A stretch of 64,000 bases of DNA from Escherichia coli (GTDB taxonomy: Bacteria > Pseudomonadota > Gammaproteobacteria > Enterobacterales > Enterobacteriaceae), in NCBI RefSeq assembly GCF_003334385.1, contig NZ_QOWN01000019.1. The stretch is one strand, 5' to 3'. The first letter of the stretch is position 1; every line of letters starts with the position of its first letter. The position numbers and the translations under genes are program-made. Below, in pieces: positions 5,666-9,378 of this stretch. The notes under the pieces are model-generated. The model searched no databases. It was not told where the DNA came from and saw only the letters and a program-made list of their open reading frames with translations.

Positions 5666-5829
5666 TCATCATTTCCACAACGGCTGGCAAATTGTCAGCC
5701 GCTTTTTCAACTATCTCTGTAACCCTTGCCCGTAAATTCGTGATAGCTGTCGTAAAGCTGTTACCGACTGGCGAAGATTTCGCCAGTCACGTCTACCCTT
5801 GTTATACCTCACACCGCAAGGAGACGATC

Positions 5830-7368
5830 ATGACCAATAATCCCCCTTCAGCACAGATTAAGCCCGGCGAGTATGGTTTCCCCCTCAAGTTAAAAGCCCG
5901 CTATGACAACTTTATTGGCGGCGAATGGGTAGCCCCTGCCGACGGCGAGTATTACCAGAATCTGACGCCGGTGACCGGGCAGCTGCTGTGCGAAGTGGCG
6001 TCTTCGGGCAAACGAGACATCGATCTGGCGCTGGATGCTGCGCACAAAGTGAAAGATAAATGGGCGCACACCTCGGTGCAGGATCGTGCGGCGATTCTGT
6101 TTAAGATTGCCGATCGAATGGAACAAAACCTCGAGCTGTTAGCGACAGCTGAAACCTGGGATAACGGCAAACCCATTCGCGAAACCAGTGCTGCGGATGT
6201 ACCGCTGGCGATTGACCATTTCCGCTATTTCGCCTCGTGTATTCGGGCGCAGGAAGGTGGGATCAGTGAAGTTGATAGCGAAACCGTGGCCTATCATTTC
6301 CATGAACCGTTAGGCGTGGTGGGGCAGATTATCCCGTGGAACTTCCCGCTGCTGATGGCGAGCTGGAAAATGGCTCCCGCGCTGGCGGCGGGCAACTGTG
6401 TGGTGCTGAAACCCGCACGTCTTACCCCGCTTTCTGTACTGCTGCTAATGGAAATTGTCGGTGATTTACTGCCGCCGGGCGTGGTGAACGTGGTCAATGG
6501 CGCAGGTGGGGTAATTGGCGAATATCTGGCGACCTCGAAACGCATCGCCAAAGTGGCGTTTACCGGCTCAACGGAAGTGGGCCAACAAATTATGCAATAC
6601 GCAACGCAAAACATTATTCCGGTGACGCTGGAGTTGGGCGGTAAGTCGCCAAATATCTTCTTTGCTGATGTGATGGATGAAGAAGATGCCTTTTTCGATA
6701 AAGCGCTGGAAGGCTTTGCACTGTTTGCCTTTAACCAGGGCGAAGTTTGCACCTGTCCGAGTCGTGCTTTAGTGCAGGAATCTATCTACGAACGCTTTAT
6801 GGAACGCGCCATCCGCCGTGTCGAAAGCATTCGTAGCGGTAACCCGCTCGACAGCGTGACGCAAATGGGCGCGCAGGTTTCTCACGGGCAACTGGAAACC
6901 ATCCTCAACTACATTGATATCGGTAAAAAAGAGGGCGCTGACGTGCTCACAGGCGGGCGGCGCAAGCTGCTGGAAGGTGAACTGAAAGACGGCTACTACC
7001 TCGAACCGACGATTCTGTTTGGTCAGAACAATATGCGGGTGTTCCAGGAGGAGATTTTTGGCCCGGTGCTGGCGGTGACCACCTTCAAAACGATGGAAGA
7101 AGCGCTGGAGCTGGCGAACGATACGCAATATGGCCTGGGCGCGGGCGTCTGGAGCCGCAACGGTAATCTGGCCTATAAGATGGGGCGCGGCATACAGGCT
7201 GGGCGCGTGTGGACCAACTGTTATCACGCTTACCCGGCACATGCGGCGTTTGGTGGCTACAAACAATCAGGTATCGGTCGCGAAACCCACAAGATGATGC
7301 TGGAGCATTACCAGCAAACCAAGTGCCTGCTGGTGAGCTACTCGGATAAACCGTTGGGGCTGTTCTGA
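5830..7368 (+). CDS. aldB: aldehyde dehydrogenase B, 512 aa
   Basis: Native start [17 protein letters not shown] at ATG 5830 (track ORF over-extended from 5692); ALDH motifs ELGGKSP and FNQGEVCTC. Confidence 0.93.
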
Positions 7369-7399
7369 TATAAGAAGCTGGTCGCATTGGGTATTCATT

Positions 7400-7490
7400 G
7401 CCTGATGCGACGCTTACGCGTCTTATCATGCCTACGGGAACCTGACCGTAGGCCGGATAAGGCGTACACGCCGCATCCGGCATAAACAAA
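7400..7490. repeat. REP/BIME cluster downstream of aldB
   Basis: Palindromic units gcctgatgcgacgcttacgcgtcttatcatgcctac and gtaggccggataaggcgt...cgccgcatccggc. Confidence 0.75.
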
Positions 7491-7912
7491 GCGCACGTTG
7501 TTACAATTTACGTTTTAAACCTACGTGCGCAATAACCCAGACTACGCCAACAGAAGTACGTTTCTGGGGCGTGTTTTGTCAGGAGTTTAATCTCGCGTTT
7601 CGATGGTGAGCGGGCGAACCAGGCCGTAAATCACCATTGGTGATCCGAGGCCAATCAGCAATAAACGGTAGATAATTGAAGGTTTAATACGCTTAATCTG
7701 TACTGTGGATGTTTTACTGGAGTTATTCATTAGTTTGGCCAATAGTTCCACTATTTCAATATGATAAACCTCGTCCTGTTGAAAAACCAGACAGCACATT
7801 TAAGAAAGTATATAAAAAACAATATGTCGTTATATAAATAAGGAAATTGCACTGCATCATGGCATTTCATAATATGCGTTAATTGTTCTTTTTTATATTC
7901 TTTGAGGGAAAT

Positions 7913-8236
7913 ATGTTCCTGGACTATTTTGCACTGGGAGTGCTTATTTTTGTATTTCTGGTGATCTTCTATGGGATCATTATTTTACATGATATTCCCT
8001 ACCTGATTGCCAAAAAACGTAATCATCCTCATGCCGACGCCATTCATGTTGCTGGTTGGGTGAGTCTTTTTACGTTACATGTTATCTGGCCGTTTTTGTG
8101 GATTTGGGCCACGCTTTACCGCCCGGAGCGGGGATGGGGAATGCAAAGCCATGATTCATCCGTTATGCAACTGCAACAGCGCATTGCCGGGCTGGAGAAA
8201 CAGCTCGCCGACATCAAATCCTCTTCTGCCGAGTAA
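7913..8236 (+). CDS. yiaW: small inner-membrane protein, DUF3302 family (107 aa)
   Basis: ATG 7913 preceded by GAGGGA; two hydrophobic helices; AT-rich. Confidence 0.85.
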
Positions 8237-8241
8237 TACTT

Positions 8242-9378
8242 ATGGATTTACTGATTATTTTGACCTATGTGGCTTTTGCATGGGCAATGTTTAAGATCTT
8301 CAAAATTCCCGTAAATAAATGGACCATTCCCACAGCGGCCCTGGGTGGAATATTTATTGTCAGCGGTCTAATTCTGTTAATGAACTATAACCATCCGTAT
8401 ACCTTTAAAGCGCAAAAAGCGGTTATTTCTATTCCTGTTGTCCCACAGGTGACTGGTGTGGTGATTGAAGTGACGGATAAGAAAAATACGCTGATTAAAA
8501 AAGGTGAGGTGCTATTTCGACTGGACCCGACGCGTTATCAGGCGCGGGTGGATCGGCTGATGGCGGATATCGTTACCGCAGAACATAAACAGCGGGCGTT
8601 GGGCGCAGAGTTAGATGAGATGGCGGCGAATACTCAGCAGGCAAAGGCCACGCGGGATAAATTCGCTAAAGAGTATCAGCGTTACGCACGTGGCAGCCAG
8701 GCGAAAGTAAACCCGTTTTCAGAACGCGATATCGATGTGGCGCGGCAAAATTATCTGGCGCAGGAAGCCTCCGTGAAGTCATCGGCGGCGGAACAAAAAC
8801 AGATCCAGAGCCAGCTGGATAGCCTGGTGTTGGGTGAACATTCTCAAATCGCCAGCCTGAAAGCACAGCTCGCGGAAGCAAAATATAACCTTGAGCAGAC
8901 GATAGTGCGTGCGCCGAGCGATGGTTATGTGACCCAGGTACTGATTCGTCCGGGTACCTATGCCGCGTCGCTGCCGCTACGTCCGGTGATGGTGTTTATA
9001 CCCGATCAGAAACGACAAATCGTGGCGCAGTTCCGTCAGAACTCCTTGCTGCGACTGGCTCCTGGCGACGATGCGGAAGTGGTGTTTAATGCTCTGCCAG
9101 GTAAGGTATTCAGCGGTAAGCTGGCAGCCATTAGTCCAGCCGTTCCCGGCGGAGCTTATCAGTCGACCGGCACCTTACAGACGTTAAACACAGCGCCGGG
9201 TTCAGATGGCGTTATCGCGACCATTGAACTGGATGAGCACACTGATTTGAGCGCTTTACCAGACGGTATTTACGCCCAGGTGGCGGTTTACTCTGATCAT
9301 TTCAGCCATGTCTCGGTGATGCGCAAAGTGCTATTACGCATGACCAGCTGGGTGCATTACCTTTATCTCGATCATTAA
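8242..9378 (+). CDS. yiaV: HlyD/EmrA-like membrane fusion protein (378 aa)
   Basis: N-terminal TM helix, coiled-coil region, 5 nt after yiaW stop. Confidence 0.88.

Follow-up and report, generated by a model that had tools for sequence, protein, structure and literature searches.

The window analysed here, a 64,000-nt stretch of an Escherichia coli contig (NZ_QOWN01000019.1), covers the yiaY-aldB-yiaW-yiaV-yiaU region of E. coli K-12. The 544-nt gap between aldB and yiaW holds a cluster of REP/BIME palindromic repeats, a 3′ remnant of hicB, the published promoter of yiaWV and a minus-strand open reading frame (ORF), which is the subject of this analysis (Table 1). An earlier note, made from the letters alone, had described the ORF as an unannotated frame of 70 codons at 7587-7799 with an internal ATG at 7730 (47 codons), encoding a hydrophobic helix flanked by basic residues, with no convincing Shine-Dalgarno before either ATG. 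Apart from the word "unannotated", this description holds. The ORF listing contains the minus-strand frame exactly as claimed (7587..7799, 70 codons, translation MCCLVFQQDEVYHIEIVELLAKLMNNSSKTSTVQIKRIKPSIIYRLLLIGLGSPMVIYGLVRPLTIETRD), with the internal ATG at 7728-7730 opening the 47-codon version, and a Shine-Dalgarno sequence was absent upstream of both ATG 7799 and ATG 7730. The 47-aa form reaches a Kyte-Doolittle 19-residue maximum of 1.71 at residues 19-37, with KRIK before it; the hydrophobic stretch is genuine, though modest. The Rfam scan of 6800-8600 returned no RNA family across the ORF, just sub-threshold matches to the REP-derived naRNA4. On the aldB side, the mechanical ORF begins at a TTG start at 5692 (5692-7368 on the plus strand, 558 codons), and annotated AldB comprises 512 residues from 5830; the 46 codons upstream of the annotated start are probably noncoding.

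Table 1. Features of the aldB-yiaW interval and its flanking genes in the window
Feature	Position	Strand	Basis or remark
aldB, convergent neighbour	5830..7368	(+)	keeps its synteny with the full-length gene in other genera
REP/BIME palindromic repeats downstream of aldB	~7380..7500	(.)	sub-threshold Rfam naRNA4 (REP-derived) matches; alignment
hicB 3′ remnant, last 23 codons, TYVRNNPDYANRSTFLGRVLSGV and stop	7519..7590	(+)	alignment; 12-nt deletion near 7567/7568
47-codon ORF + stop	7587..7730	(-)	matches codons 1-38 and 96-104 of the ancestral 104-codon membrane-protein gene
Deletion junction, codons 38-39 (GTT CGC)	~7614..7619	(-)	alignments; coordinates of the deleted segment
In-frame upstream extension, 23 codons from ATG 7799	7731..7799	(-)	outside the ancestral protein
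yiaWV sigma-70 promoter (CAGACA-17-TATAAA)	7788..7816	(+)	PMC3946193; located in the window
yiaW (DUF3302), divergent neighbour	7913..8236	(+)	

As for annotation, the ORF is indeed left out of the curated MG1655 record (NC_000913.3), in which the 47 codons lie at 3754611-3754754 on the plus strand. In RefSeq, however, the frame is annotated: K-12 derivatives, like thousands of other E. coli genomes, have it as hypothetical protein WP_001066080.1, which PGAP calls at 7587-7730(-). The start chosen by PGAP varies by strain, giving products of 47, 51 or 67 aa, and O157:H7 gets no call.

The gap sequence was compared by BLAST with 5426 complete E. coli genomes, and some strains, including E600003 and 6409, were found to carry a longer ORF at the same place. 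The E600003 frame encodes 104 residues (MNNPSKTSTVQIKRIKPSIIYRLLLIGLGTPMVIYGLVCGVLGMFGYDQVRWNDTVIHGLLALPAGLLAGLSVSVFLTVVIGTIACFGLWLYSLVRPLTIETRD; accession of the E. coli full-length protein, WP_001064340.1). Short and full-length alleles have in common the start codon, the stop overlapping the end of hicB and the orientation between aldB and yiaW. The 47 codons retained in the short allele are 96% identical to codons 1-38 plus 96-104 of the full-length E. coli allele, and three-way and five-way alignments place the difference between them precisely: codons 39-95 (57 codons, exactly 171 nt) are missing from K-12 and O157, and the frame is kept. The deleted segment is bounded by the imperfect 15-nt direct repeats GCGGACCAGGCTGTA and GCAAACCAGACCGTA, whose translations end alike, in ..YGLVC and ..YSLVRP. 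Only 28 of the 5426 complete genomes contain the 171-nt segment, and the deleted form is found in 3806 of them at a coverage of at least 80%; the flanks were matched in about 4300 genomes, the rest having a different arrangement. About 70% of E. coli, K-12 included, carry the deleted allele.

Searched exhaustively with HMMER, the long form retrieved 164 cluster representatives at E<=1e-3, of which 26 reach E<=1e-10; almost all have 95-125 residues and align over their whole length. The near-invariant positions of the family are G27, G46, G59, G88, L89 and W90, and its conserved motifs are an FGxDxVxWN..HG loop and GLW(L/I)YSxxRP. For the long form, AlphaFold2 (AF2) gives a model (pLDDT 84.7) that consists, in order, of a strand (residues 7-10), a helix (17-44), the WN-loop hairpin, a long helix (59-95) and a strand (100-103). 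In this model the N- and C-terminal strands are on the same side of both helices, an arrangement that the deletion breaks. Pfam, NCBIfam, PADLOC and PHROGs searches with the long form, the short form and the orthologs gave nothing significant, Foldseek with the long-form model found no solved structure in the PDB at E<1, and the 15 matches from a profile search of a 5.8-billion-protein set with the family alignment included none with a Pfam label.

A resemblance in fold was found to DUF3566/CofA (PF12089). According to PMC7205459, CofA (DUF3566) is a two-transmembrane cofactor binding the transmembrane domain of the class A PBP1a in Corynebacterineae. The AF2 long form superposes at TM 0.8-0.9 on many AFDB proteins of about 100 residues that are named 'DUF3566 domain-containing' (Foldseek; UniProt names), one Franconibacter ortholog bears that name in UniRef, and both proteins are small and consist almost wholly of two transmembrane helices, as far as the full-length form is concerned, the K-12 relic having one helix. 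However, the PF12089 profile did not match the E. coli long form or the Franconibacter ortholog P0040 at E<=10, and it matched 0 of 63 family members at E<=0.1; the gene context also differs, in that the gene adjoins aldB here and DUF3566/CofA is downstream of gyrA in Actinobacteria. Because the profile matches no member tested and the context differs, the ancestral protein is filed as fold-similar to DUF3566/CofA and not as a member. The intact family is a widespread, unnamed one of two-helix membrane proteins with a predicted DUF3566/CofA-like fold, and purely by analogy the ancestral protein may have been a small accessory subunit binding another membrane protein via its helices.

Measured against this family, the K-12 form keeps G27 alone among the near-invariant residues. 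With codons 39-95 it has lost the FGxDxVxWN..HG loop, the whole second helix, the GLW(L/I)YS motif and five of the six near-invariant positions. In sequence terms it is a truncated derivative of the 104-aa family and does not count as an intact member. In its predicted product, helix 1 would be joined straight to the last nine residues, which would put the C-terminal strand on the wrong side of the membrane. Because codons 39-95 are missing, the two-helix fold predicted for the family is out of reach for the K-12 product, which cannot serve as its functional equivalent.

To find the gene outside E. coli, one genome per species was scanned with a 10-sequence alignment. Full-length orthologs of 103-105 codons were found in Escherichia whittamii and Escherichia sp. 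E1V33, in Citrobacter amalonaticus (several lineages), C. sedlakii and Citrobacter sp. R56, in Kluyvera (three species), Pseudocitrobacter (two) and Franconibacter (two), and in Enterobacter sp. kpr-6 and the Enterobacteriaceae MAG UBA5654. At 13 of the 16 species loci the gene and aldB are convergent and no more than about 1 kb apart, with nothing between them or only hicAB or what is left of hicB, and at the remaining three it is still linked to yiaWV-aldB. The gene is syntenic across eight genera. None of these 16 loci outside E. coli holds a 47-codon form. Since the outgroup orthologs are all 103-105 codons long and occupy the same aldB-linked locus, the long form is the ancestral one, passed on vertically, and a deletion in it produced the K-12 form. 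The opposite course, in which the long form would have arisen by insertion into a short one, was rejected, as it is contradicted by the 16 outgroup species.

These comparisons also bear on the suspicion in the earlier note that the ORF may be a chance frame, that is, a product of AT-rich intergenic DNA with no coding history. On the one hand, ORF length by itself is not beyond chance: in 2000 dinucleotide shuffles of the gap, an ATG-initiated ORF of at least 47 codons occurred in 56% and one of at least 70 codons in 16%, and a chance ORF would also be expected to lack a Shine-Dalgarno and to be passed over in the curated MG1655 annotation. On the other hand, chance would hardly give 47 codons nearly identical to the two ends of a syntenic gene that is under purifying selection. 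What exceeds chance, as judged from the alignments, is the homology to this conserved, syntenic 104-codon gene, which refutes the chance frame and leaves it with next to no probability. The ORF is almost certainly of relic origin, namely the in-frame-deleted stump of a 104-residue membrane-protein gene.

The comparison also points to one of the two candidate starts. The homologs align from their own residues 1-10 to the MNN start, that is, to the internal ATG 7730, and E. coli TOE51 has a stop codon within the 23-codon extension; both speak for the internal ATG. A 70-residue protein from ATG 7799 would have in its favour that this is the longest ATG-initiated frame and that the extension is open in some other Escherichia, in which gene callers gave 127-aa or 70-aa versions. 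However, the family, including the Citrobacter and Franconibacter orthologs, starts at the MNN position, and in most orthologs the frame closes 3-13 codons upstream of it. The published sigma-70 promoter of yiaWV lies in an H-NS-bound spacer (PMC3946193), and ATG 7799 falls between the two hexamers of that promoter, without a Shine-Dalgarno. A 70-residue product is very unlikely; the homologs put the true start at ATG 7730, and the 70-codon reading can be dropped. A second sigma-70-like site, TGGCCA-18-TATGAT (7736-7765, plus strand), lies on the yiaW strand inside the upstream extension of the ORF.

The surroundings of the ORF have changed along with it, and four states of the locus could be told apart. 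In Escherichia sp. E1V33 and strain E600003 the order is aldB, hicA, hicB, the convergent 104-codon gene and yiaW, with the stops of hicB and the gene overlapping in TTAA. In strain 6409 and E. whittamii, hicAB has given way to REP elements, the last hicB codons and the intact 104-codon gene being kept. K-12 and O157 share this REP/hicB junction and have two deletions besides, 12 nt in the hicB stump and 171 nt in the gene; their REP/BIME cluster occupies the exact place of hicA-hicB in E600003 and E1V33. The K-12 hicB remnant corresponds to the end of intact HicB (..TYVRNNPDYANRSAFLAEAARRVLPGV and stop), and its stop overlaps the ORF stop (TTAA, 7587-7590), as in strains with intact hicB. In AR13438 and JNEC-KY174, finally, hicAB is kept, and a GH127 hydrolase and an MFS transporter replace the gene and yiaWV; AR13438 has in addition a type I restriction endonuclease gene between aldB and hicA-hicB. 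The last ~10 codons of the gene alone remain in these two strains, cut almost at the GAGCGGGC site of the K-12 deletion, and cuts at nearly the same site suggest a recombination-prone spot. The hicB remnant and the REP replacement are signs of a general decay of the locus.

Taken in sequence, these states fit a two-step decay. The ancestor of Escherichia and its relatives had a gene for a membrane protein of ~104 residues, convergent with aldB. In the Escherichia lineage the adjoining hicA-hicB was then most likely deleted, with REP elements in its stead and 23-27 hicB codons left, and slippage or illegitimate recombination between the imperfect 15-nt repeats most likely removed the 171 nt in frame thereafter. 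The outcome would be a peptide of 47 residues, if any is made, with one hydrophobic segment and without most of the near-invariant residues.

Selection was compared between long and short alleles. The full-length gene has a dN/dS of 0.02-0.14 across 11 species pairs, and the full-length alleles of E. coli and E1V33 differ by 16 synonymous and 7 nonsynonymous changes (dN/dS 0.13). Judging from these ratios, the full-length gene is clearly protein-coding and under strong purifying selection. Among nine diverse short alleles sampled, the segregating changes are 12 nonsynonymous and 8 synonymous; in the same 47 codons of four long alleles, they are 5 nonsynonymous and 13 synonymous (Fisher p=0.058 for the difference). 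This corresponds to a pN/pS of about 0.5 in the short alleles versus about 0.13 in the long ones, on small numbers, and pairwise omega ranges from 0.2 to 1.6 on very few changes. In the O157 lineage the short allele has lost the family-invariant glycine to G27V and carries T30M/I within the helix that remains. The changes in the short alleles point towards relaxed constraint, with numbers too small to decide, and some residual constraint may persist in them, the ratio being near 0.5 and not 1.

Conservation of the frame in relatives, which the earlier note had proposed as a check, gave a divided result: no interruption of the 47-codon frame was found in the nine short alleles, but amino-acid changes are relatively more frequent there than in full-length alleles, and one of them falls on the invariant glycine. 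An intact 144-nt frame at a divergence of at most 6% is expected even under neutrality; by our own estimate, about 0.3 stop-creating changes would be expected at the divergence of the short alleles. A deletion has, moreover, a prior chance of one in three of being in frame.

The promoter and terminator scan found neither a minus-strand promoter-like site upstream of the ORF nor a terminator relevant to it. A Shine-Dalgarno is absent in all Escherichia copies, full-length ones included, and the orthologs of Kluyvera, C. sedlakii and Franconibacter have GAGGA, AAGGAG or AGGAG 6-10 nt upstream of the start. The missing Shine-Dalgarno taken singly says little, since the full-length Escherichia alleles are also without one. 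The smORFer and sORF-proteomics supplements have no entry for the MG1655 interval of the ORF, the peptide, WP_001066080 and WP_001064340 were mentioned nowhere in the literature searched, and aldB, yiaW and remnants go unmentioned in the main text of 'The Cryptic Bacterial Microproteome' (PMC11188072). With no Shine-Dalgarno, no minus-strand promoter-like site and an AT-rich spacer bound by H-NS, we infer that the relic would be translated weakly or not at all.

The main competing explanation is that the 47-residue product is still made and is kept as a functional single-pass small membrane protein with a new function or a subset of the old one, for example partner binding via helix 1. The deletion was in frame, the frame has stayed open in every short allele sampled, the allele type is that of 3806 of the 5426 genomes, pN/pS is below 1, and most of helix 1 and of the KRIK motif is shared by the alleles. 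However, the second helix and five of the six near-invariant residues are gone, the changes inside the remaining helix in the O157 lineage (G27V, T30M/I) are nonconservative, and the ORF has neither a Shine-Dalgarno nor an upstream minus-strand promoter-like site in its H-NS-bound spacer. The 47-codon form does not occur outside E. coli, where orthologs have 103-105 codons, and a 144-nt frame of this divergence needs no selection to remain intact. On balance a functional 47-residue protein is unlikely. Nor is it probable that the in-frame deletion made a new translated single-pass peptide, in effect helix 1 of a CofA-like protein, retained in about 70% of E. coli and perhaps acting as a dominant or altered binder of the ancestral partner; if this were so, truncation of a larger protein would have given birth to a small one. 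The reading as a missed small membrane protein is refuted for the most part, the ORF being what remains after a 171-nt deletion of a conserved core, with no 47-codon form elsewhere. Loss of function by the relic is what we infer, and the combined reading, a relic that is no longer functional, is likely.

The distinction can also be drawn by comparison with known kinds of features. Validated small membrane proteins of E. coli of at most 50 residues include AcrZ, YohP and the Y-genes derived from ribosome profiling, and validated small proteins of this species are defined by detected translation or tagging, often with conservation of the short ORF itself. The ORF resembles them in having 47 codons, one hydrophobic helix after basic residues and an intergenic position, but differs in having no Shine-Dalgarno, in being a recent deletion derivative confined to E. 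coli and in being known here from sequence alone. It is also like K-12 deletion pseudogenes and degraded toxin-antitoxin loci, in that an intact homolog exists elsewhere and the core was lost between short direct repeats. From ordinary K-12 gene remnants it differs in that the deletion is in frame, so that a start-to-stop ORF survives and is auto-annotated as 'hypothetical protein'.

The ORF belongs to an ordinary kind of feature, a gene remnant called a hypothetical protein, and holds little biological surprise; its interest lies mainly in annotation. Thousands of E. coli genomes carry it under the PGAP label 'hypothetical protein', with starts that do not agree; it would be better described as what an internal deletion has left of a 104-aa membrane-protein gene, next to a hicB fragment. 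For the discovery of small proteins it is a caution: even where a short ORF encodes a convincing transmembrane helix, it can be left over from a larger gene. The part worth studying is not the K-12 relic but the intact family, on which purifying selection is strong in Citrobacter, Kluyvera, Franconibacter and others.

Two further observations concern the locus at large. In Escherichia sp. E1V33, Pseudocitrobacter faecalis and Enterobacter sp. kpr-6, hicA-hicB separates the 104-codon gene from aldB (or from yiaV), and it is absent from the gene locus in Citrobacter, Kluyvera and Franconibacter; given its patchy presence in three distant lineages, it must either have inserted more than once at one spot or have been lost more than once. 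A tripartite module of the ORF with hicAB was considered and rejected, as most species have the gene without hicAB. IS1 has inserted between aldB and the ORF in strain GD33 and inside yiaW in strain HS-02, and these insertions are further evidence that the region tolerates disruption.
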